Shown here piece by piece: positions 4,975-60,437 of a stretch of 64,000 nt of DNA (its first letter is position 1; every line of letters starts with the position of its first letter). The stretch is from positions 4,188 to 68,187 of the forward strand of contig DATMQT010000102.1 in NCBI GenBank assembly GCA_035566655.1. Direction: 5' to 3'. The position numbers were made by a program, and so were the translations under genes. Below the pieces are notes generated by a model. The model saw only the letters and a list, made by a program, of their open reading frames with translations, was not told the origin of the DNA and made no database searches. The DNA is from Candidatus Dormiibacterota bacterium. GTDB taxonomy: Bacteria > Acidobacteriota > Terriglobia > Terriglobales > Acidobacteriaceae.

Positions 4975-5682
4975 ATGCGGCGGGCAAATTTCATGACGGG
5001 ATGGGTGGCCACGGCTGTGCTGTGGGCAGCGACCGTTGTGGTGTCTCTGTCTACCTGCCTGGCGCAGCCCGGCACATACCCCTCCGTGCAGGCACGGCAG
5101 TCATCGCCGAGTCAAAATCACCCGAATCAAAGTCATCCGAATCAGAGTCATCCGAATCAGAGTCCTCCGAATCAGAGTCGTCCAAATCAGAATCATCAGC
5201 AGCCGCCGAACCCTGGACCAGGACATGCCGGCGACTGGCTGCGCCGCTACAAGAATCTGCCGCCGGGCGAGCAGGAACGCGCGCTCCAGAGGGATCCCGC
5301 ATTCCGCCACTTGTCTCCGGCGCAGCAGCAACAGTTGCGGCAACGGCTGCAGCATTTCTCAGGGCTGCCACCGCAGCAGCAGCAGCGCGTGCTGAATCGC
5401 ATGGAAACCTGGGAACATCTGACGCCGGGGCAGAAGGAGCAGGCCCGTCAGGTTCACGGCCAGTTACAGCAACTTCCTCCCGAGAGGCAGGCCATGGTGA
5501 AAACCGCGGTGCACCATCTGAGCGCGATGCCTCCCGAACAACGGGAACAGATTATCAATTCTGAGCGGTTTAAGGGCATGTTCTCGCCGCAGGAGCGTGA
5601 AATCATGCGTGGAGCTTCGAGGTTGCCGCTCGCGCCACCGGAGAATGGCAAGCCCGGAGAAACGCCGGCGCCCGAACAGTAG
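4975..5682 (+). CDS. DUF3106-like Gln/Pro-rich secreted protein (third gene of the ECF sigma/anti-sigma operon)
   Basis: Signal-like N-terminus and repeated helical motifs (LSPAQQQQLRQRL, LPPQQQQRVLNRM, LTPGQKEQARQV, MPPEQREQIINSERFK), as in DUF3106 proteins. Confidence 0.7.
   Translation: MRRANFMTGWVATAVLWAATVVVSLSTCLAQPGTYPSVQARQSSPSQNHPNQSHPNQSHPNQSPPNQSRPNQNHQQPPNPGPGHAGDWLRRYKNLPPGEQERALQRDPAFRHLSPAQQQQLRQRLQHFSGLPPQQQQRVLNRMETWEHLTPGQKEQARQVHGQLQQLPPERQAMVKTAVHHLSAMPPEQREQIINSERFKGMFSPQEREIMRGASRLPLAPPENGKPGETPAPEQ
5110..5199 (+). repeat. 6 x 15-nt in-frame tandem repeat (pentapeptide SQNHP/NQSHP/NQSHP/NQSPP/NQSRP/NQNHQ)
   Basis: Units aatcaRagtcatccg read directly from the sequence, inside the DUF3106-like CDS. 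Confidence 0.9.
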
Positions 5683-6572: not shown

Positions 6573-9500
6573 TCAGTGAAAATCGTGCGAAACCGTCTCA
6601 GCTTTAGTGACGAACAGTGGCTGCACGCGTTCCGCTTTGACCGAGATCACGTTGTCCTGATTTTGCAGAATTCCTTCGATGGCCAGAAACCGCTCTGAGG
6701 CCAGCAGCAGGCGGTGGCGGTGAAAAAGATCAGGCGTGATGATCGCGTTAGCCACTCCGGTTTCATCTTCCAGACTGACAAACACGAAACCTTTCGCGGT
6801 CCCGGGACGCTGGCGGGTAATGACGCAACCTCCGATGCGAAGACGCTTGCCATTGGGCAAGTCGCGGAGTTCGCTGGCGCGGCGAATGCCCATGGCCTTG
6901 AGCCATTCGCGACGGTAGGCCATGGGATGCGGGCCGACGGTGAGGCCAGTGCCGTGGAAGTCGGCAACCAGCCGCTCTTCGTGGTTCATGGGTTGAAGCG
7001 GCGAAGGCGAATCGGGCTCCGGCAACTGTTCCAGCAGCGGCCCGGAACCGCGGACGGCACGTTCCACTTGCCAGAGCGCGTCGCGGCGGTGGAACTTCGA
7101 GTCCCGAGTCTCGAGTCCCAAGTCCCGAGTAAAACTTTTGTCATTCCAACCCCCGAGCGAATGCGAGGGGCTGAGGAATCTCGGGACTCGGGACTCGGGA
7201 CTCGCCACTGCATTCAGCGCTCCGATCTCCGCCAGTGTAGTGAGTTCGTCCTTGCGCAGTTCAGAAACGCGGCGGGTGAGATCGTGAATAGAACTGAACG
7301 GAGCAAGCATGCGCTCACGTACCAGAGCCTGAGCAGCTTCCTCGCGCAGCCCACGAACGTAACGCAACCCCACACGCAGCGCTGTCCCGCCGGCAGTACT
7401 GGTTTTACTGGCCACTGGCCACTGACCACTGACCACTGCTTCTAAACTGCAATTCCACTCCGACCGCATCACGTCCACGGGCAGCATTTTCAATCCATGA
7501 CGCTGCGCATCCTTGGTGATGGTCGCCGGAGAATAAAATCCCATGGGCTGGTTGTTGAGCAGGGCGGCGGTAAACGCGGCCAGGTAATGGCATTTCAAAA
7601 ACGCGCTGGCATAAGCGATGAGAGCGAAGCTGGCGGCGTGCGATTCAGGAAATCCATAGAGAGCAAACGAAGTAATCGAGAGAATAATTTTCTCCTGCGC
7701 CTCCTGGGGAATTCCATTCTGCGTCATGCCGGCGCGCAACTTGGCTTCGATTTCCTTCATGCGTGCCTGCGAGCGCTTGAGGCCCATGGCGCGGCGCAGG
7801 TCTTCCGCTTCGCCGCCGGTGAAGTTGGCAGCGATCATGGCCAGACGAAGCAGTTGTTCCTGAAAAAGCGGCACGCCGAGCGTGCGTTTAAGCACCGGTT
7901 CTAGCGAAGGATGCGGATACGTTACCTCTTCTCTTCCCTGGCGGCGTTGCAAAAAAGGGTTGACCATCTGGCCGACGATCGGCCCCGGCCGGATAATCGC
8001 GACCTGCACCACGATGTCATAAAAATGTTTCGGACGCAGGCGCGGCAGGCACGACATCTGCGCGCGGCTTTCCACCTGGAACAAACCCACGGTGTCGGCC
8101 TGCTGCAGCGCGGAATAGACCGCGGGATCATCCTGCGGAAGATGCGCCAGATCAACCTCTTCGTGATAATGCTCGCGAATGAGTTCGATGGAATCCTTGA
8201 GCACGGCCATCATTCCCAGGCCGAGCAGGTCGACTTTGATGATGCCCATGTCGGCGCAATCTTCTTTGTCCCACTGCACCACGACGCGGCCGGGCATGGA
8301 AGCGGGTTCGAGCGGAACGACCGAATCGAGTTGTCCCTGGCAGATGACCATGCCCCCGGAGTGCTGGCCGAGATGGCGCGGCATGTCCTGCACGGCGAGG
8401 CACAGCTCGTAATACTTGCGCAGGCGCGGATGTTTGAGGTCGAGCCCGGCATCGCGGAAGCGGCGGTCGAGCGCGTCGTTCTCGTCGCGGAATTCCCAGG
8501 TAGCGACTGCGGCGGAAATTTTGCCGAGCGTTTCCGGATCGAGGCCTAGAGCCTTGCCCATTTCGCGCGCCGCCATGCGGTTGCGATAAGTAATGACGTT
8601 CGCCGTCATGGCCGCGCCGCGCTCGCCATAGCGCCGGTAAACATATTGAATAACTTTTTCGCGTTCGTCGCCGCTGGGCAGGTCGAGATCGATGTCGGGC
8701 CATTCACTGCGCTCCTCAGAAAGAAAACGCTCAAAGAGAAGCTCCATGCTGACGGGATCGACGGCCGTGATGCCGAGCGAATAACAGACGGCACTGTTGG
8801 CGGCCGAGCCGCGTCCCTGCAGCAGAATGTTTTGCTCGCGGCAGAAGCGGACCAGGTCCCACACGATGAGAAAATATCCCTCAAGTTTTAGTTTTCCGAT
8901 GAGTGCGAGTTCACGCTCAATCTGGCGCCGGGCGCGGGTTTGCATGTCAGACGCAGCGCGCCCATAACGCTGCCGAAAACCTTCCCATGCACGCTCGCGC
9001 AGGAAACAGTTCATGGTTTCGCCTTCGGGAACAGGATAACGGGGAAACTCGTAGCCGAGGTCGTTAAGCGTAAATTCCAGGCGCGAAGAAAGTTCCGAGG
9101 TATTGCTGATGGCCTCAGGAAGGTCGGCGAAGAGCTGCTGCATTTCTTTTGATGATTTCAGGTGGCGCTCGGAGTTGCGCGTTAATAAACGTCCGGCTGT
9201 TGACAAGGTACGGTGATGACGGATGGCAGTAAATGCGTCGCAGAGTTCGCGATCTTTCGCGGCGGCGTAGCATGCGCCGTTGGTTGCAAGCAGAGGGAGA
9301 TTAAGTGAGCCAGCGATTGCGATGGCGGCGCGATTGCGAGTTTCTTCTTCGCGATGAAAATGCCGCTGCAATTCGATGTACACATTGCCACGGCCAAAGA
9401 TTCCAACTAATCGCTCGACTTGCTGGCGAGCTTCTTCGATGCCGCTATGTTGCAAAGCAGCGGCCAGCGGCCCATCCGCGCCGCCGGTTAGACAGATTAG

Positions 9501-9860
9501 GCCGTCCGCATGTTCTTCCAATTGTTCTTGGCAAATTGCACCTTCGCCTTTTTCCGCGCGCAACTTCATTTTGGTGATCAGGCGGCAGAGATTTTGATAG
9601 CCGGCGCGGGAGGAAACGAGGAGAGGAAGACGATATTTTTGTGACGAAGAAAGATTAGCTCTGACTTCCGCGCCGATGTGCGCCTTGATCCCAAGTTTCT
9701 TTGCTGCCAGGTGAAAGCGCGGCGCACCGTAGACCCCGTCGGTATCGAGCAATGCCATGGCGGGCATATTGAGCCGGGCGCAGGCTGTCATCAGATCCTC
9801 AGGCAGGGAAGAACCTTCGAGGAAGCTGAAAGCGGAACGGGTGTGAAGCTCGGTGTACAT
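6573..9860 (-). CDS. dnaE2: error-prone DNA polymerase III alpha-like subunit DnaE2 (ImuC)
   Basis: 1095 aa with N-terminal PHP motif MYTELHTRSAFSFLEGSS. Length and synteny with imuA-imuB fit. Carries two in-frame repeat insertions (see findings). Confidence 0.95.
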   Translation of the reverse strand: MYTELHTRSAFSFLEGSSLPEDLMTACARLNMPAMALLDTDGVYGAPRFHLAAKKLGIKAHIGAEVRANLSSSQKYRLPLLVSSRAGYQNLCRLITKMKLRAEKGEGAICQEQLEEHADGLICLTGGADGPLAAALQHSGIEEARQQVERLVGIFGRGNVYIELQRHFHREEETRNRAAIAIAGSLNLPLLATNGACYAAAKDRELCDAFTAIRHHRTLSTAGRLLTRNSERHLKSSKEMQQLFADLPEAISNTSELSSRLEFTLNDLGYEFPRYPVPEGETMNCFLRERAWEGFRQRYGRAASDMQTRARRQIERELALIGKLKLEGYFLIVWDLVRFCREQNILLQGRGSAANSAVCYSLGITAVDPVSMELLFERFLSEERSEWPDIDLDLPSGDEREKVIQYVYRRYGERGAAMTANVITYRNRMAAREMGKALGLDPETLGKISAAVATWEFRDENDALDRRFRDAGLDLKHPRLRKYYELCLAVQDMPRHLGQHSGGMVICQGQLDSVVPLEPASMPGRVVVQWDKEDCADMGIIKVDLLGLGMMAVLKDSIELIREHYHEEVDLAHLPQDDPAVYSALQQADTVGLFQVESRAQMSCLPRLRPKHFYDIVVQVAIIRPGPIVGQMVNPFLQRRQGREEVTYPHPSLEPVLKRTLGVPLFQEQLLRLAMIAANFTGGEAEDLRRAMGLKRSQARMKEIEAKLRAGMTQNGIPQEAQEKIILSITSFALYGFPESHAASFALIAYASAFLKCHYLAAFTAALLNNQPMGFYSPATITKDAQRHGLKMLPVDVMRSEWNCSLEAVVSGQWPVASKTSTAGGTALRVGLRYVRGLREEAAQALVRERMLAPFSSIHDLTRRVSELRKDELTTLAEIGALNAVASPESRVPRFLSPSHSLGGWNDKSFTRDLGLETRDSKFHRRDALWQVERAVRGSGPLLEQLPEPDSPSPLQPMNHEERLVADFHGTGLTVGPHPMAYRREWLKAMGIRRASELRDLPNGKRLRIGGCVITRQRPGTAKGFVFVSLEDETGVANAIITPDLFHRHRLLLASERFLAIEGILQNQDNVISVKAERVQPLFVTKAETVSHDFH
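7098..7204. repeat. composite insertion inside dnaE2: heptamer arms (cgagtcc x4 / ctcggga x3) around a TGTCATTCC...GGAATC element
   Basis: Left arm 7098-7130, right arm 7180-7204 (its reverse complement), nested dispersed element 7139-7180. Translated in-frame as ...SPESRVPRFLSPSHSLGGWNDKSFTRDLGLETRDSKF... Confidence 0.85.
7408..7439. repeat. tandem heptamer array (ctggcca ctggcca ctgacca ctgacca) inside dnaE2
   Basis: Same CAGTGRY word as the intergenic hairpins at 9861 and 18848. Translated as VSGQWPVAS. Confidence 0.8.
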
Positions 9861-9934
9861 CAGTGATCAGTGGTCAGTGGCCAGGAAAAGCGGAAGATTT
9901 TAACTAGCCACTGATCACTGGCCACTGGCCACTG
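9861..9934. repeat. heptamer-word hairpin (CAGTGRY) filling the imuB-dnaE2 intercistronic gap
   Basis: Left arm 9861-9884 cagtgatcagtggtcagtggccag, loop of 22 nt, right arm 9907-9934. About 19/24 complementary by hand alignment. TTTT follows on the plus strand. Confidence 0.85.
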
Positions 9935-11537: not shown

Positions 11538-11622
11538 GGTTTCAAAGTTTCAAGGTTTCAAGGTTTCAAAAAATAATTTGCTCAACTTTGAAACCTTGAG
11601 ACATTGAAACTTTGAAACCTTG
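11538..11622. repeat. octamer-word hairpin (GTTTCAAR) at the imuA-imuB junction
   Basis: Left arm 11538-11570, right arm 11586-11622 (its reverse complement). The right arm forms the last codons of imuA (KTRFQSFNVSRFQS). TTTTTT follows on the plus strand. Confidence 0.85.
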
Positions 11623-18847: not shown

Positions 18848-18945
18848 GCAGTGGCCAGTGGTCAGTGATCAGTGGCCAGAGAAAACCGTACCTATGGTCG
18901 CAGGTGGGACTGACTGACCACTGACCACTAACCACTGACCACTGC
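18848..18945. repeat. heptamer-word hairpin (CAGTGRY) between phoU and the response-regulator gene
   Basis: Left arm 18848-18879, 30-nt loop, right arm 18910-18945. About 27/32 complementary by hand alignment. TTTT follows on the plus strand. Confidence 0.9.
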
Positions 18946-20308: not shown

Positions 20309-20734
20309 ATGGAAGGCCGCCCACTCTTTGCCTTTACTGTCGCGCAAATCGTGGCGGCTGCCGTAGTTCTATGGCTGATATTTTCCCAGCGCATCCCCTG
20401 GAATTTGCAGCGCTGCGTGGGCGCTGCCCTGGTGGCCGTGGGCTATGGTGGAATTGCGGCCGCACGCTACCAACTCGGCAAGTCTTTCTCCCTAACACCC
20501 CAAGCCCGCCAGCTAGTCACACGCGGGGTTTATTCCAAGATACGCAATCCGATCTATGTTTTCGGCACGGTCGCGATTGCCGGACTTATCCTGCTTTTGC
20601 GCCAGCCGTCGCTCTGGCTGCTTCTTGTGCTCATCGTAATCATCCAGACGCTGCGCGCCCGCCGCGAAGCTCAGGTTCTGGAAGCCGCATTCGGCGATGC
20701 CTACCGCGAGTATCGCCGCAAAACCTGGTTCTGA
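20309..20734 (+). CDS. isoprenylcysteine carboxyl methyltransferase (ICMT/PEMT) family membrane protein
   Basis: LVTRGVYSKIRNPIYVF motif, EEAxLxxxFGxxYxxY-like C-terminus, 3-4 TM segments. A GAGGAGGG Shine-Dalgarno sequence precedes the ATG. Confidence 0.8.
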   Translation: MEGRPLFAFTVAQIVAAAVVLWLIFSQRIPWNLQRCVGAALVAVGYGGIAAARYQLGKSFSLTPQARQLVTRGVYSKIRNPIYVFGTVAIAGLILLLRQPSLWLLLVLIVIIQTLRARREAQVLEAAFGDAYREYRRKTWF

Positions 20735-20775
20735 AGAGCTGGTTCTGAAGACCTGGTTCTGAAGACCCGGTTCGG
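20725..20775. repeat. 14-nt (2 x 7) tandem repeat ctggttc-tgaagaS, about 3.5 copies, spanning the ICMT stop codon
   Basis: ctggttctgaagag / ctggttctgaagac / ctggttctgaagac / ccggttcggaggct read directly. The TGA stop at 20732-20734 lies in the first unit. Confidence 0.85.
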
Positions 20776-25977: not shown

Positions 25978-26056
25978 CCAGTTCTTAGTTCTCAGTTCCC
26001 AGTTCGAAGCCACCCAAGGTTTGACCGAGAACTGAGAACTGGGAACTGAGAACTGG
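25978..26056. repeat. heptamer-word hairpin (AGTTCYY) in a divergent 5' region
   Basis: Left arm 25978-26005, 21-nt loop, right arm 26027-26056. The right arm ends 6 nt before ATG 26063. Confidence 0.85.
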
Positions 26057-38495: not shown

Positions 38496-38984
38496 ATGAA
38501 AACAAGGACTCCCCTTCTTGTCCTCGCGATCCTTGTCCCCGCGATCTTTGTTCTGGCGATCTTTGTCCTGGCGAGTTGGCCACTCGATCTTGCCACTGCG
38601 CAAGACAAGCCCGACACGACCTCAGCGAAGATTCTGGCGTTGGAGGACAAATGGAACGCGGCTTACAAGCGCGGCGACATTGCCACCATGGAATCTTTGC
38701 TGGCCGATAATTTCATTATCACGCTGGAGGACGGCAGCACCTTCAGCAAGTCTGGCTACCTCGCACACAACGGCGACCCGACCGTCCACATTGAGACGAC
38801 GGAAGGGTCGGGTCTCAGCGTCCGCATGCACGGCAACACCGCCGTCGTGACCGGTGCCTATCACGAAAAAGGCACCTCCAAGGGAAAGCCTTACGAATAC
38901 CACGACCGTTTCACCGATGTCTGGATGAACCTGAACGGGAAGTGGCAGGTGATCGTTTCGCACTACAGCATTCCTTCCAATTGA
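38496..38984 (+). CDS. NTF2-like (DUF4440/SnoaL-like) secreted protein
   Basis: ILALEDKWNAAYKRGDIATMESLLADNF... and ...WQVIVSHYS are typical of DUF4440. Start at ATG 38496. The hydrophobic leader contains a 15-nt tandem repeat. Confidence 0.75.
   Translation: MKTRTPLLVLAILVPAIFVLAIFVLASWPLDLATAQDKPDTTSAKILALEDKWNAAYKRGDIATMESLLADNFIITLEDGSTFSKSGYLAHNGDPTVHIETTEGSGLSVRMHGNTAVVTGAYHEKGTSKGKPYEYHDRFTDVWMNLNGKWQVIVSHYSIPSN
38517..38576. repeat. 4 x 15-nt in-frame tandem repeat inside the signal/TM segment
   Basis: cttgtcctcgcgatc / cttgtccccgcgatc / tttgttctggcgatc / tttgtcctggcgagt, encoding LVLAI LVPAI FVLAI FVLAS. Confidence 0.85.
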
Positions 38985-51144: not shown

Positions 51145-51300
51145 GAAGCTCTTAGCCATTAGCTCTTAGCTTCATGCCTCATTGCATCGAAGTTGTTTTT
51201 TCTTGCTTGTGCAAGTCTTGTGCTTGTTCGCGTTCCAACTTTGAGTCTGGCTGGCTGTAGTTCGGTTGGAGCTAAGAGCTAAAGGCTAAAAGCTACAAGC
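51145..51300. repeat. heptamer-word hairpin (AGCTCTT/AGCCATT) with a long (about 95-nt) interior
   Basis: cttagccattagctcttagc (51151-51170) against gctaagagctaaaggctaaa (51271-51290), 18/20 complementary. Confidence 0.8.
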
Positions 51301-51335
51301 TGAAGTCCAGTGACATCGGTAACTCCGCCGTCGCG

Positions 51336-52319: not shown

Positions 52320-52321
52320 AA

Positions 52322-52351
52322 GCAGTGGTCAGTGTCCAGTGATCAGTGGCC
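52322..52351. repeat. tandem heptamer array (cagtggt cagtgtc cagtgat cagtggc)
   Basis: Lies immediately after the MoxR stop codon. No inverted partner seen. Confidence 0.75.
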
Positions 52352-52393: not shown

Positions 52394-52876
52394 ATGCCCT
52401 TCCTCCGGTTTCTCATGCTGCTTTCGCTCGTGGTTTGGATCGGTGGTTTGATCTTCTTTGCATTCGTGCTTGCGCCGACGGCGTTCTCGATCCCCGCAGT
52501 GCTGCCTAACACTCATCTTGCCGGCAACGTTGTCGGACGCGCCCTGAGCAAGCTGCATTGGATCGCCATCTTCTCCGGAGTCGTCTACCTGATCAGTTCC
52601 CTGCTCTACAGTCGCTTCACCGACGGAACCGCGCATCTGTTTGCAGCGCGCCATATTCTTCTCTGCCTCATGTTGGCGCTCACGCTGGTCTCGCAGTTCG
52701 GAATCATGCCTCGCATGGATACTCTACGCGCATCGCTCGGCGAGGTCAGTGCCGTGCCCATCGACAATCCTGAGCGCATTCAGTTCGATGCTCTGCATGT
52801 TTGGTCGACGCGCGTGGAAGGCGCTGTGCTGGTGCTGGGACTGGTAGTGGTTTATTTGACCGCGCGTAGCTTCTAG
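52394..52876 (+). CDS. DUF4149-like (TMEM205-like) membrane protein
   Basis: 160 aa, 4 TM segments, N-terminus FLMLLSLVVWIGGLIFFAFVLAP typical of DUF4149. Confidence 0.6.
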   Translation: MPFLRFLMLLSLVVWIGGLIFFAFVLAPTAFSIPAVLPNTHLAGNVVGRALSKLHWIAIFSGVVYLISSLLYSRFTDGTAHLFAARHILLCLMLALTLVSQFGIMPRMDTLRASLGEVSAVPIDNPERIQFDALHVWSTRVEGAVLVLGLVVVYLTARSF

Positions 52877-52997
52877 CCAAAACGTCTCGGCGCGCCATTG
52901 GGCATTTGCTCTTTCGATCATTTATCCTGAAGGGTTGTTTGATCATCGCAGAGGCCGCAGTGTCGATCCACTCGGGTTTCACTTCGGTGTCACAGCG

Positions 52998-53020
52998 GCT
53001 AGAAGCTAGGAGCTAGAAGC
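52998..53020. repeat. tandem heptamer array (gctagaa gctagga gctagaa gc)
   Basis: Lies directly upstream of the ychF ATG. Its AGGAG could act as the Shine-Dalgarno sequence. Confidence 0.7.
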
Positions 53021-53026
53021 TTCCTT

Positions 53027-54112
53027 ATGAAGACTGGAATTATTGGCCTGCCTCAGGTGGGCAAGACATCGCTTTTTCGGATTTTGACCAAGGCCCATCT
53101 CTCGGATCAATCGCGCGCTAACCCGCGCGAGGCGCATATCGGCGTGGCTAAAGTTCCGGACGACCGGCTTGACCGGCTGGCTGCGCTCTACAACCCGAAG
53201 AAACTAACGCATACATCCGTCGAATACGTCGACGTCGGCGCCATTGGGCAGGAGGCGCTGAAGGACACGGCTTACACCGCACACTTGCGCAGCGTGGACG
53301 CGTTCGCTCACGTGGTGCGCGTGTTTGACGATCCTTCGGTGCCGCATACGGGCGAGATCGATCCGCTGCGCGACATTAAGAATGTGGAATTCGATCTGCT
53401 GGTCAGCGATCTGGGACAGATCGAAAAACGGCTGGAGCGGTTGGAAAAAGATCTCAAGAAGATGAAGACTCCGGAACTCGAGAAGGAATTTGAGTTGCTG
53501 AAGCGGGCCAAGGTGCAGGTGGAATCTGACAAGCCATTGCGCGAAATGGAAATGACTGCCGAGGACAAGAAGCGCATCAAGGGCTTCATGTTCCTGAGCG
53601 AGAAGCCGATTTTCTATGTTCTTAACATCGGCGAGTCGACCGAACTGGGCAAGGAATTGGAAGCAGCGGTGAGCAAGTACAAGCTGACGGAAATCGCGGC
53701 GCGGCCAAACGCCGCGGCCACCGCCATCTGCGGCAAGGTGGAAGCCGAACTTGCCGAAATGAGCGACGCAGACGCGGCAGAATTTCTCTCCAGTTACGGG
53801 CTCACAGAGAGCGGCCTGGTACGGTTGATTCGGACTACGTACAAACTGCTCGGCCTGATTTCATTCTTCACCGCCGGCGAAGACGAATGCCGCGCCTGGC
53901 AAGTCCCCGCGCATTCCCGTGCGCAGGAAGCGGCTGGTGCGATTCATTCCGACCTGGAAAAGCATTTCATCCGCGCTGAAACGATTCGATGGGACCAGTT
54001 GCTGGAAGCTGGATCAGAGGCGAATGCCAGAGCGAAAGGGACCCTCAGACTCGAAGGCAAAGATTACATCGTGCAGGATGGCGACGTAATGCATATACGG
54101 CATTCCGGGTGA
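53027..54112 (+). CDS. ychF: redox-regulated / ribosome-binding ATPase YchF
   Basis: G1 motif GLPQVGKTSLF, coiled-coil insert, C-terminal TGS-like RLEGKDYIVQDGDVMHIRH. Confidence 0.95.
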   Translation: MKTGIIGLPQVGKTSLFRILTKAHLSDQSRANPREAHIGVAKVPDDRLDRLAALYNPKKLTHTSVEYVDVGAIGQEALKDTAYTAHLRSVDAFAHVVRVFDDPSVPHTGEIDPLRDIKNVEFDLLVSDLGQIEKRLERLEKDLKKMKTPELEKEFELLKRAKVQVESDKPLREMEMTAEDKKRIKGFMFLSEKPIFYVLNIGESTELGKELEAAVSKYKLTEIAARPNAAATAICGKVEAELAEMSDADAAEFLSSYGLTESGLVRLIRTTYKLLGLISFFTAGEDECRAWQVPAHSRAQEAAGAIHSDLEKHFIRAETIRWDQLLEAGSEANARAKGTLRLEGKDYIVQDGDVMHIRHSG

Positions 54113-54584
54113 CAGTACCCAGTAGCTAGTACCCAGAAAACAGCGCCTTGGATAAACTGGAATCCCGACACGGAACCAAGAAGCTGAAATCAGGGATTGT
54201 GGTCAGGGCCGGGCAACGTTTGGTTGTAAGCTGGAGCGATGGCGCAGCACTACAAAGATTTAATTGCTTGGCAGAGAGCGATGGACCTAGTCAGCGTCCT
54301 CTACGATGCAACCGACGATTTTCCCAAGCGCGAGACTTACAGTCTGACCGATCGAATGCGTCGGGCGGCCGTCTCGATCCCGAGCAACATAGCTGAAGGG
54401 CAAGCACACTTCAGTCGTCGTGAGTTTCGTCACTTTCTTCGCCACTCCTGTGGATCGCTGGCCGAACTCGGAACTCAGATACGCATGAAGTGGGCCGAAT
54501 TCTGAGCGGCCTCCTCAATTCTCTTAAAGAACAAATCCCCGCGGCGTGAGAGATTTGACTGGGTACTGGGTACTCGGTACTGTC
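54111..54584. mobile_element. 474-nt insert bounded by 26-nt imperfect inverted repeats (AGTACCC words) carrying a decayed four-helix-bundle gene
   Basis: gacagtacccagtagctagtacccag (54111-54136) against ctgggtactgggtactcggtactgtc (54559-54584), about 22/26 complementary. Calling it mobile is an inference. Confidence 0.5.
54239..54549 (+). pseudogene. four-helix-bundle protein (23S rRNA intervening-sequence protein / Avd family), internally deleted and frameshifted
   Basis: The 88-aa ORF (54239-54505) has YKDLIAWQRAMDLV...RRAAVSIPSNIAEGQA...GSLAEL.TQ. The expected C-terminus (EVGRILSGLLNSLKEQ) is readable in another frame up to TGA 54547-54549. Confidence 0.7.
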
Positions 54585-54591
54585 ATACTTC

Positions 54592-55323
54592 ATGCACCCC
54601 ATCGCTACCAGCATATTGCTCGGCCTTACTGCCGCTGTCGCCAACGTCTTCGGCGGGGCGATTATTGTGCAGCGCAGTTGGGAGCGGCGCTATCTCCGGT
54701 ACTTTGTCGCCTTGGGCGCGGGATTCATGTTGGCCACCGCCTTGGTCGAGATGGTTCCGGAAAGTTTGGAGCTGCGCGGCCGCAGCGCTGCGTTTCTGAT
54801 CCTGCTGGGCTACCTCCTCATTCATTTTTTCGAGCATACGGTCACGCCGCACTTCCACTTCGGAGAGGAGACGCATAAAGACGAGTTCATGCACTCGCAC
54901 AAGGGATACTCGGTGCTTCTGGGGCTCATCATCCACACATTTTTTGACGGCATCGCCATCGCGTCTGGATTTCTAGTGTCGAACGCGCTCGGCTGGATCA
55001 TCTTTTTCGCCATCTTCCTGCATAAGATTCCCGAGGGCTTTACGGTAAGTTCGGTGATGCTGGCCAGCGGACGCAGCCGGGGCACGGCGTGGGGCGCGTC
55101 GGTGGTCCTGGGCGGGGCAACGCTGGCGGGGGTTCTGACCATGGCGTTGTTTCGCCAACATGTGGACTCCGGGTTGCCGCTGGCGGCGGGGGTCACGATC
55201 TACGTGGCGGCTTCGGATTTAATCCCTGAGGTTAACAAAGAACCGGGTGCCAAGATGGCTCTGCTGGTTTTCGTGGGAGCCGGGGTCGTGTTTCTGCTGG
55301 ACGCGTTGTTTCACGTGCACTGA
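54592..55323 (+). CDS. ZIP-family divalent metal transporter (ZupT-like)
   Basis: HTFFDGIAIA and HKIPEGF motifs, about 8 TM segments. Confidence 0.9.
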   Translation: MHPIATSILLGLTAAVANVFGGAIIVQRSWERRYLRYFVALGAGFMLATALVEMVPESLELRGRSAAFLILLGYLLIHFFEHTVTPHFHFGEETHKDEFMHSHKGYSVLLGLIIHTFFDGIAIASGFLVSNALGWIIFFAIFLHKIPEGFTVSSVMLASGRSRGTAWGASVVLGGATLAGVLTMALFRQHVDSGLPLAAGVTIYVAASDLIPEVNKEPGAKMALLVFVGAGVVFLLDALFHVH

Positions 55324-55499
55324 TGGCAGTGGTCAGTGGAGACTCGGTCGACCTGATCGTTTTGTCAATTCAATTCTTGGTTTTGTGTTCCGAAACCGGC
55401 AGGACGTGCGGCCCAGGGGCTCCTGTCGTTAACGATAGGAAATCCGGTGGGGGCACGGCCAAAGCCGTGCCCTTCCCGAACCATTTTGTGAAACCAGCT

Positions 55500-58583: not shown

Positions 58584-60407
58584 ATGAAGAAGCTTGCTTT
58601 CGCGCTGCTCGTCACCAGCCTATCCTTTCCCTCTTTTGTGTGTGCCCAAACCTCTTCTGCACCCACGGCGCAAAATCCTCAAATCATTACTGTTAGCCAG
58701 ATTCACGCGGGCATGCGCGGGGTCGCCTACACGGTGTTTGAAGGGGTGAAGCCGGAGTCGATGGACGTGGAAGTGCTGGGCGTGCTGCACAACGTGAACG
58801 GGCCGAAGGGCGACATTATTCTGGTGCGGCTGCACGGGACGAAGGTCGAGTACACGGGCGTGGTGGCCGGGATGAGCGGCAGTCCGGTTTACCTGGATGG
58901 CAAACTCGCCGGGGCGCTCGCGTTTCGCATCGGAGAATTTTCCAAAGAGCCGATCGCTGGAGTTACGCCGATTGCCGACATGCTGGAAATCAACGCGCTT
59001 GATCGCTCACCCTCGGAGGAGACTTCCGCGGTCAAGCCTTCGGTGAATTCAGTCGCCGGCAAGACTGCCGCTCCTGGGGAAGCGCTGGCGTTGGCGGGCT
59101 CGGGTCAGGATTCAGCCGGGAATTTTGCGAACTACTTGAAGCCCATCGAGACTCCTCTGGTCTTCAACGGATTCTCCGAACAGGCGATTCAGCTTTTCGC
59201 GCCGCAGTTTGCCTCAGCCGGAATCGTCCCGGTCATGGGCGCGGGATCGGTTAGTAATGACAAGCAGCCGGAGCCGCTCGAAGCCGGGTCTGCCATCAGC
59301 GCCATCCTGGTGCGCGGCGACATGGACATTGCGGCTACCTGCACGGTGACTTACGTGGATCCGCAGCGGCTGCTGGCCTGCGGACACCCCCTGCTGCAAT
59401 TCGGCTCTGTCGACTTGCCCATGAACAAAGCCGAGGTTCTGGCCACGCTGCCCTCGCCACTCAACGCGTTCAAAATCGTGAACACCACTGAGGCCGTGGG
59501 GACGTTTGTCCAGGACCGCCACACCGGCATCATGGGCGTCTTCGACCGTCAGCCGCAGATGATTCCGGTTACGTTGACCATCCACAGCGGCACGGGTTCG
59601 AAAGAATTTCACTACGAAGTGTTGAACAATCCCCGGCTGACTCCGGTGGCCCTGATGGTGACGGTGTTCAACGCGCTGCACGGCGTGAACGAGTTCGGAG
59701 AAGAGATCACTTACCGGCTCGCGGGCAGCATCGGCGTAAAGGGATTCCCTGACGTGACCATGCGCAATATGTTCGCACCGGTCGAGAACGGGCAGCCGGC
59801 GGCGATGCAGGCCGCGCTCTCGCTGGGCGAGCGCTTCGGACGCATCTATGACAATCCTTATAACGCTCCCGCGATCGCGGGCGTGAAACTGGAATTCGAT
59901 CTGGTCCGCGAACGGCGCTGGGCGCGCCTGGAGAGCGCCCGCACTGATGTAACGGAAGCCCGTCCCGGCCAGGAGATTACGCTTGAGACGGTGCTCGCTC
60001 CTTACCGCGGCGAGCGCACGGTGCGGCAGATTCGCGTGAAGATTCCCACCTCGGCGAGCAAAGGCACGCTACGCATCCTGGTGAGCGACGGGGAGACCTT
60101 GGACCGCATCGGCCGCGGCAATCCGGCGTTCGGCCGCAAGCTCGATCTGGCCTCGACTATCGCGGTGCTCAACAAAGAGCACTCCAACAACCGCGTTTAT
60201 GTTTCGCTGCTCGAGGGAAATCCTGAAGCCCGCGTCGCCGACAAAGTGATGCCGACGCTTCCCATCTCGATCATGAACGTGATGGATGGCATGCGTGGCA
60301 ATCAGGAAATGGTGGTTTCGGGCGAATCGAATGTGGATGAGACGGCAACCGCTCCGCTGGATTATGTGGTGTCAGGAGCTCAGTTGCTGACGGTGACTAT
60401 CAAGTAA
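58584..60407 (+). CDS. secreted peptidase S55 (SpoIVB-like) domain protein
   Basis: Signal peptide. AGMSGSPVY serine-protease motif in an N-terminal domain resembling SpoIVB. Large C-terminal region of unknown function. Confidence 0.65.
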   Translation: MKKLAFALLVTSLSFPSFVCAQTSSAPTAQNPQIITVSQIHAGMRGVAYTVFEGVKPESMDVEVLGVLHNVNGPKGDIILVRLHGTKVEYTGVVAGMSGSPVYLDGKLAGALAFRIGEFSKEPIAGVTPIADMLEINALDRSPSEETSAVKPSVNSVAGKTAAPGEALALAGSGQDSAGNFANYLKPIETPLVFNGFSEQAIQLFAPQFASAGIVPVMGAGSVSNDKQPEPLEAGSAISAILVRGDMDIAATCTVTYVDPQRLLACGHPLLQFGSVDLPMNKAEVLATLPSPLNAFKIVNTTEAVGTFVQDRHTGIMGVFDRQPQMIPVTLTIHSGTGSKEFHYEVLNNPRLTPVALMVTVFNALHGVNEFGEEITYRLAGSIGVKGFPDVTMRNMFAPVENGQPAAMQAALSLGERFGRIYDNPYNAPAIAGVKLEFDLVRERRWARLESARTDVTEARPGQEITLETVLAPYRGERTVRQIRVKIPTSASKGTLRILVSDGETLDRIGRGNPAFGRKLDLASTIAVLNKEHSNNRVYVSLLEGNPEARVADKVMPTLPISIMNVMDGMRGNQEMVVSGESNVDETATAPLDYVVSGAQLLTVTIK

Positions 60408-60437
60408 GTACCTAGTACCCACTACCCAGTACCCAGC
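60408..60437. repeat. tandem heptamer array (gtaccta gtaccca ctaccca gtaccca)
   Basis: Lies in a convergent junction and overlaps the last codons of the CPBP gene (LKLGTG). Same AGTACCC word as the arms at 54111/54559. Confidence 0.75.

Follow-up and report, generated by a model that had tools for sequence, protein, structure and literature searches.

The window analysed here, a 64,000-nucleotide stretch of contig DATMQT010000102.1 (Candidatus Dormiibacterota bacterium, placed in the Acidobacteriaceae), carries between ychF and a gene for a ZIP-family transporter a short element in which a four-helix-bundle (4HB) gene is enclosed by inverted arrays of a seven-nucleotide word. A sequence-only reading had placed imperfect 26-nt arms of AGTACCC words around 422 nt at 54111-54584 and likened the whole to the intervening sequences (IVSs) of 23S rRNA. 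The arms are real and each is one base wider, since a repeat search gave 27-nt arms at 54110-54136 and 54559-54585 (Table 1), 89% complementary, 422 nt apart and scoring 18 on a +1/-2 scale. AGTACCC occurs eight times in the window against 1.8 expected, and Tandem Repeats Finder (TRF) reported a period of 7 with 3.6 copies at 54558-54582. The arms thus hold at least three tandem 7-nt units in intergenic DNA, as short tandemly repeated repetitive (STRR) sequences do, and, as in an IVS, terminal inverted repeats make up a predicted long stem around an open reading frame (ORF). The predicted fold of the cassette is closed by the arms in both the minimum free energy (MFE) and the centroid structure (z -3.3), and the stem-bracketed 4HB gene at 54110-54585 is confirmed.

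The 4HB gene and its damage

The family assignment made from the letters was upheld by profile searches. The ORF at 54239-54505 (88 aa) exceeded the curated cut-offs of PF05635 (E 5.8e-27, 94.5 bits vs 33.8) and TIGR02436 (E 1.6e-24, 86.2 bits vs 24), and it carries at residues 42-53 (RAAVSIPSNIAE) the RxxxSxxxNxxE motif conserved in PF05635-type 4HB proteins (PMC3936711). The intact orthologue P0012 (123 aa) reached 121.8 bits, again above the curated cut-off of the PF05635/TIGR02436 family, which is very large, with more than 7,900 matches to the single 88-aa query.

An internal deletion and a frameshift had been reported as the damage to this gene; the damage is present, but it amounts to one event, because a single 61-nt loss relative to the intact 123-aa orthologue explains both. 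TAC microhomology flanks both edges of the deletion in the intact orthologue, and the identical 61-nt deletion is found in the independent metagenome assemblies L095 and L096, so it is no assembly error. The C-terminus is legible out of frame up to 54549, as had been noticed: tblastn and the frame-3 translation located residues 102-123 at 54481-54546 and the original stop codon at 54547-54549. A full-length protein (about 115-125 aa, all four helices) is not encoded by the window copy, which is a pseudogene or, at best, the source of a truncated 88-aa product.

Table 1. Features of the ychF-ZIP interval, in window coordinates
Feature	Position	Strand	Description
ychF (upstream flank)	53027..54112	+	PF06071, E 4.6e-35
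5' arm	54110..54136	+	TGA CAGTACC CAGTAGC TAGTACC CAG; tandem AGTNNNN heptamers, 3 units; pairs with 3' arm in MFE and centroid folds
Cassette leader	54137..54238	+	Begins AAAAC; GGAG at 54233-54236
4HB gene, residues 1-81	54239..54481	+	94% identical to intact orthologue P0012
61-nt deletion junction	54481..54482	+	Residues 82-101 gone and frame shifted; alignment to intact orthologue, columns 403-463
Frameshifted tail of 88-aa ORF	54482..54505	+	MKWAEF, then stop
Out-of-frame remnant, residues 102-123 and original stop	54481..54549	+	tblastn, 95% identity over 22 residues
3' arm	54559..54585	+	CTG GGTACTG GGTACTC GGTACTG TCA; NNNNACT units; ends 6 nt before ZIP start codon
ZIP-family transporter gene (downstream flank)	54592..55323	+	PF02535, E 5.4e-30

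The TGA stop of ychF (54110-54112) supplies the first three bases of the 5' arm. The GGAG that had been taken as the gene's own Shine-Dalgarno sequence exists, but a mere 2 nt separate it from the ATG and orthologues do not conserve it. Inside the window cassette, a scan restricted to the sigma-70-type consensus found no sigma-70-like promoter, and no terminator was found on the + strand. Rfam recognised no family at the site and only two tRNAs in the whole window, with no rRNA nearby. A few bases before the ZIP start codon, a CTGnTAT(C/T)ATCC string resembling an extended -10 element is conserved in contigs L098, L123, L129, L135, L136, L143, L149 and L155; the window has ACTGTCATACTTC at the same position.

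By analogy with XCC0516 and Avd, the intact 4HB protein is probably a pentamer that binds nucleic acid, and the solved structure of a pentameric relative, 2GSC, was matched at E 2e-23. A tblastn search with the 4HB protein gave no match in phage genomes. Against PADLOC, P0012 matched weakly (E 6e-4) the C-terminal part of a UG6 defence reverse transcriptase (positions 702-798 of 925), which is a second tie of the 4HB fold to reverse transcriptases besides Avd.

Inverted word arrays around 4HB genes in other bacteria

A scan of species-representative genomes with the 4HB query gave 80 loci, and 10 plasmid loci were examined besides. 4HB genes were scored by the best ungapped inverted repeat that pairs the upstream 300 nt with the downstream 200 nt. 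The score was at least 14 in 70 of 86 4HB genes (median 18), whereas for 331 control ORFs from the same loci the median was 8 and the 95th percentile 10. All control ORFs with a score of at least 14 turned out to be additional 4HB genes, and the best control outside the family scored 12. The inverted word-array bracket is specific to 4HB genes, and the layout of a gene within a word hairpin is general, being found in nearly every relative examined and in eight or more bacterial phyla. Paralogues had been named beforehand as the place to look, with armless intact copies or arms unrelated to the gene as the adverse outcome; what was found instead is that paralogues elsewhere and homologues in other phyla are flanked by word-type inverted repeats, an outcome in favour of the earlier reading.

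Bracketed loci were present in Acidobacteriota, Planctomycetota, deltaproteobacteria, Synergistaceae, Fibrobacter and Victivallales. Plasmids of isolates (Nostoc, Calothrix, Anabaena, Stanieria, Geminocystis, Picosynechococcus, Pseudanabaena and Gemmatirosa) carry 4HB genes bracketed by other 7- or 8-nt words; in both copies of Nostoc PCC 7120 the 5' arm is missing and insertion sequences adjoin. On the plasmids, the neighbours of a wedged-in 4HB gene are cas6 and cas4, cmr2 and cmr3, or nrd genes, and 4HB genes between cmr3/cmr2 and cas6/cas4 have been described (PMC3936711). None of 20 related non-syntenic loci lay in rRNA, and Rfam recognised no family at them.

The cassettes occupy the entire gap between two genes. 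Co-orientation of the upstream gene was recorded in 64 of 74 loci; for non-syntenic loci the figure was 24 of 30. Relative to the start of the 5' arm, the stop codon of this gene usually falls at -5 to +17 nt, often overlapping the first AGT (TAG-T, TGA-GT). At the other end, some 0-20 nt usually separate the 3' arm from the next gene's start, or from its stop where the two genes converge. Target-site duplications were sought at the cassette boundaries and none were seen.

The words of the arms

The AGTNNNN form was scored in the Acidobacteriota-centred clade. In all 78 scored loci the units of the 5' arm begin with A (95%), G (100%) and T (96%), followed by four variable bases; 22 different words were recorded, with variable parts including ACCC, ACCG, ACCA, GGCC, GGAT, AGGC, TGCC, TCTC and CCCG. 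The 3' arm is the complement of the 5' arm, with Watson-Crick pairing at 92% of positions (1819/1967), and the order is always 5'-AGTNNNN ... NNNNACT-3'. Because an inverted repeat reads alike on either strand, this fixed order is a chirality of the repeat and not an orientation with respect to the gene.

Among orthologues the word can be exchanged in both arms together, as in L016 (AGTCCCG) and L018 (AGTTGCG) against AGTACCN elsewhere. Between different loci, protein identity drops with word distance (Spearman -0.37 to -0.41, permutation p<0.001), and since protein identity thus tracks word similarity, gene and arms are inherited or moved as one unit. These results show the gene and its arms to be one heritable unit in many phyla. 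L108 has an expanded array of more than 15 AGTTCTC units directly after ychF (1650-1780), and several cassettes with AGTTCTC words (L133, L139 and L146) have an extra back-to-back array pair upstream of the 5' arm.

Turnover and decay at the ychF-ZIP junction

The closest intact homologue of the window gene, P0012, comes from soil metagenome contigs, where it again has ychF on one side and ZIP on the other and stands within arms of the same kind. About 45 metagenome-assembled genomes of Terriglobales share the order ychF-4HB-ZIP, with identities of 74-98% for ychF and 54-90% for the 4HB protein. The junction was also sampled independently of the 4HB gene, by a metagenome scan using the YchF C-terminus, and this comparison of the gap in relatives, which had been suggested as a check, brought up empty hairpins, lone arms and near-empty gaps besides intact cassettes. 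Type-1 cassettes have AGTACCN words; type-2 cassettes have AGTTCTC words and a protein 41-52% identical to that of type 1. Frameshifted or truncated 4HB genes occur in L101, L104, L117 and L154, and genes inverted relative to ychF in L102, L113, L115, L147 and L174. Empty hairpins consist of AGTTCTC words in L129, L161 and L176 and of AGTACCG in L138. A lone 5' arm is present in L122 and a lone 3' arm in L135, L136, L143, L144, L149 and L155, while in L150, L167 and L173 the gap is only 10-26 nt long. L168 holds a nested element, and L098 and about nine other contigs have an unrelated 8-mer hairpin, (CACGGAGN)3 AAAAC ... GTTTT (NCTCCGTG)3.

Aligned to a type-2 cassette, the empty hairpin of L129 has retained both arms, ~20 nt from the beginning of the leader and ~36 nt from the end of the ORF, stop codon included; the ~390 nt that separate these two remnants in the cassette are missing. 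Because both arms, the leader start and the ORF end are retained, L129 is a deletion relic. The suggestion that empty hairpins are relics of such cassettes is therefore shown directly, by alignment, for this one junction hairpin, and its counterpart, that the loops are insertion sites, has indirect support from the nested elements in L168 and at 7131-7179 of the window. Taken together, the junction shows a stepwise loss, from frameshift through partial deletion to an empty hairpin or a single arm and then to nothing, and along the path that L129 has taken the window copy, lacking 61 nt, stands near the beginning. Intact copies are under purifying selection: dN/dS was 0.068 for intact type-1 4HB genes against 0.029 for ychF and 0.044 for ZIP, with dS close to saturation.

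In a separate comparison of L098 (2370-2512) with the window (54095-54592), the last 357 nt of ychF were 99% identical except for the last few codons (~20 nt), whereas beyond ychF the whole junction differs and the ZIP allele has 93% amino acid identity. This contrast suggests that recombination had its breakpoint right where ychF ends.

Other word hairpins in the window

Word hairpins without a 4HB gene are frequent in the window. Those at 9860-9934, 18849-18944, 25979-26055 and 11538-11622 consist of AGTGGTC-type words twice, AGTTCTC once and the 8-mer GTTTCAAA once, and the AGT-type words of such gene-less hairpins recur on 4HB cassettes of relatives (L080, L083 and type-2 cassettes). The cassette interior opens with AAAAC (54137-54141), and this string had been described as common to the small hairpins; it was found at 7131 and 18882 but not at 9885, where the letters are AAAAG. 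In the row M48 peptidase-MoxR-DUF4149-ychF-ZIP, nearly every spacer has word arrays starting at the upstream stop codon, namely an AGCTCTT hairpin at 51147-51301, a single AGTGGTC-type array at 52320-52350 and a AGCTTCTAGCC / GGCTAGAAGCT hairpin at 52867-53021 whose loop begins with AAAAC, and two CAGTGGT-type units (CAGTGGT, CAGTGGA) follow the ZIP stop codon at 55326-55340.

One hairpin lies within a gene. The minus-strand ORF at 6573-9860 encodes a DnaE2/ImuC-like Pol III alpha subunit (PHP, NTPase, finger, HHH_6 and OB domains), and an AGTCCCG word hairpin at 7098-7209 sits in frame inside it as residues 884-921, between '..IGALN' and 'KFHRRDALW', with the palindrome 7131-7179 nested in it; a second array of ACTGRCC at 7407-7438 forms residues 808-818 within the HHH_6 domain.

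Near-identical contigs were inspected for 4HB genes at the positions of two other hairpins of the window; they had none and showed variation only in the number of units. The hairpin at 18849-18944, downstream of PhoU, differs from L181 and L184 by 11 nt (one heptamer plus CAGT) in one arm, and as such near-identical contigs differ in this way, arrays vary by slippage within populations. At 60407-60436 a lone array of the cassette word AGTACCT/C (4.3 units) stands where an S55-peptidase-like gene has its stop codon and directly adjoins a convergent Rce1-like gene; the window holds no partner arm for it. TRF also listed 14-15-nt units in 3-6 tandem copies at 5107-5197, 20723-20773 and 38517-38574.

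Relation to known elements

IVSs of the ORF-bearing kind are carried by the 23S rRNA of Leptospira as well as of Coxiella burnetii. The C. burnetii IVS has a 28-bp terminal stem, 3-4 tandem GACAGAT heptamers and a decaying S23p ORF, and RNase III cuts it at the first repeat (PMC4990558). Window cassette and IVS are alike in the PF05635 protein in the loop, the insert of ~430-480 nt, the terminal stem of ~27-28 bp, the tandem heptamers in the 5' stem region, the ORF in sense to the host transcript and prone to decay, and the variable number of repeat units. They differ in the word, AGTACCC against GACAGAT, and in the host site, which here is the spacer of a ychF-ZIP mRNA operon instead of helix 45 or 25 of 23S rRNA; RNase III excision has been demonstrated for the IVS only. 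Not being in rRNA, the window element is not a strict member of the 23S IVSs; it is an IVS architecture in a new kind of host site. The proposal of an IVS-like stem plus ORF outside rRNA is supported by the ychF-ZIP orthologues with intact gene and arms, the bracketed homologues, the lack of rRNA nearby and the Coxiella parallel.

Cyanobacterial STRR heptamers include STRR1 (CCCCAGT) and STRR3 (CAACAGT). Arrays of the heptamer TAACTGA occur in Beggiatoaceae and cyanobacteria (PMC4679880), and Geobacter metallireducens has paired tandem octa- or heptanucleotide sites which the authors guessed to be IHF/HU sites (PMC2700814). All of these resemble the present arrays as intergenic tandem 7-8-nt words, often in opposite-strand pairs at variable distance; the AGTNNNN phase is matched by STRR1, by STRR3 and by TAACTGA read as its reverse complement, and the Geobacter class-2 word TCTCCGTS matches the 8-mer of the L098-type hairpins (PMC2700814). 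The published arrays were described with no link to 4HB genes, as guessed regulator, IHF or translational sites, whereas here arrays bracket a gene. The window element also differs from the named STRRs in its word, AGTACCC, and in having its relatives in Acidobacteriota, while the 4HB cassettes of cyanobacteria are built from other words.

Non-autonomous hairpin repeats co-transcribed with genes include the Correia elements or NEMIS (Neisseria miniature insertion sequences), which are cut by RNase III, the repetitive extragenic palindromic (REP) sequences and bacterial interspersed mosaic elements (BIME) with their REP-associated tyrosine transposase (RAYT) genes, and the Rickettsia palindromic elements. 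Likenesses are abundant palindromes at gene ends and one in frame inside a gene (7098-7209), the dnaE2-like hairpin resembling the in-frame Rickettsia palindromic elements. The deletion derivatives of the cassettes recall miniature inverted-repeat transposable elements (MITEs), and the cassette is laid out like a REPtron, with the genome's own repeats as inverted copies on either side of a gene, the likeness being one of layout only. In contrast to this group of repeats, the cassettes have no transposase or RAYT and have variable tandem short words instead of one conserved terminal inverted repeat. An assignment to a MITE or Correia-like element was rejected: inverted repeats are present, but there is no direct duplication at the arm boundaries and the element carries a gene. 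A REPtron was rejected as well, the enclosed gene being PF05635 and not a Y1 (RAYT) transposase. Avd, the accessory protein of diversity-generating retroelements (DGRs), belongs to the same 4HB superfamily, with a weak match to PF22296 and 25-41 bits to NF033474. Unlike a DGR Avd gene, the window gene has no adjoining reverse transcriptase or template/variable repeats (TR/VR); this candidate too was rejected, at 25.1 bits (window ORF) and 40.6 bits (P0012) against an NF033474 cut-off of 80 and with ychF and ZIP as neighbours.

In a literature search that covered few subscription journals, we found neither an earlier description of word-array brackets around non-rRNA 4HB genes nor a publication showing empty word hairpins to be relics of 4HB cassettes.

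Interpretation

Considering the above results, we regard it as probable, with moderate confidence, that 54110-54585 is a decaying, promoter-less, IVS-type PF05635 cassette outside rRNA and a member of a widespread class. Following the 23S IVS precedent, we infer a plausible model for such a cassette. It would be transcribed by read-through from ychF, and the arms would pair as an RNA stem of ~25 bp that closes off the insert, by which the host transcript would tolerate it. As in 23S IVSs, the stem may be a substrate of RNase III, and cleavage would free the 4HB mRNA and part the ychF and ZIP messages. Several points weigh against this model. Mismatches between the arms are G:U-compatible in 44 cases and A:C in 46, with no wobble excess, and a selected RNA stem of the sense strand should tolerate G:U and purge A:C; the comparison thus carries no RNA-specific signal and is at most mildly against an RNA stem. 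Pairing alone does not account for the invariant AGT, the in-frame hairpin of the dnaE2-like gene would be a burden were such stems cut efficiently by RNase III, and no target-site duplication was seen. The term promoter-less, moreover, refers to the sigma-70-type consensus, to which the scan was restricted.

Some of these points would be accommodated if the arms acted in DNA, as inverted arrays of protein-binding sites serving mobility, inversion or maintenance, with RNA pairing incidental; the encoded 4HB pentamer, a host factor such as IHF/HU or a recombinase would be candidate binders. A fixed AGT at a 7-nt period with drift at the other positions looks like sequence recognition rather than pairing alone, the constant 5'-AGT...ACT-3' chirality is that of terminal inverted repeats, and an RNA-type wobble bias is absent (44 vs 46). 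Recombination between arms would invert the 4HB gene as seen in L102, L113, L115, L147 and L174, unit number differs between near-identical contigs, the occupant of one site turns over even among strains 99% identical in the 3' part of ychF, and IHF/HU binding has been proposed for the similar paired Geobacter arrays (PMC2700814). However, the cassette travels with no recombinase or transposase and no target-site duplication was seen; the four variable bases stay complementary between the arms, a match that a pure binding-site model does not need, and the strong co-orientation with the upstream gene points to a transcription-dependent logic. We rate this explanation second, as possible though rather unlikely.

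A role in the host could also have come first, word hairpins at gene ends serving mRNA processing, stabilisation or termination before a 4HB gene entered the loop as cargo. Gene-less hairpins do stand at stop codons in the window (9860-9934, 18849-18944, 51147-51301 and 52867-53021), elements are nested at 7131-7179 and in L168, and in L098 and about nine further contigs the same junction is occupied by the unrelated 8-mer hairpin. L129, however, shows the reverse direction, from cassette to empty hairpin; related proteins at different loci have related words, so that gene and arms move together; and none of the non-4HB ORFs examined lay between such arms. We consider this order of events improbable. 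Single arrays such as 60407-60436 and 52320-52350 might suggest instead that the arms are independent hairpin halves or chance repeats with no relation to the gene. The arm score of 18 against a control 95th percentile of 10, the bracket around 70 of 86 homologues and around no other ORF, and the retention of both arms by orthologues speak against it; the recurrence of the bracket in homologues and its absence around control ORFs refute this explanation, which we hold to be next to impossible.

The favoured reading, a decaying IVS-type cassette, can be extended to a broader and speculative proposal, which we think unlikely to hold in full: tandem-word hairpins would be non-autonomous footprints left by 4HB cassettes, and the pentameric 4HB protein would be a trans-acting reader of the periodic words. 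Such footprints would take in the cyanobacterial STRRs, the paired Geobacter sites and the many empty hairpins of the window, with 23S IVSs as the rRNA-resident members; about one subunit would act per word unit, driving the spread, homogenisation or maintenance of the words. If true, a protein with no known catalytic fold would underlie a system of the REP/RAYT or transposon/MITE kind.

Short tandem heptamers are known in cyanobacteria, Beggiatoaceae and Geobacter, with no agreed origin in the literature examined, and on the favoured reading one element class joins 4HB genes, tandem word repeats and ORF-bearing 23S IVSs. The finding also bears on annotation, as inserts of this class lie inside operons (cas, cmr and ychF-ZIP) and one word hairpin is in frame in a dnaE2-like gene. 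The window copy is itself an ordinary decayed member, and its interest lies in the class that it reveals.

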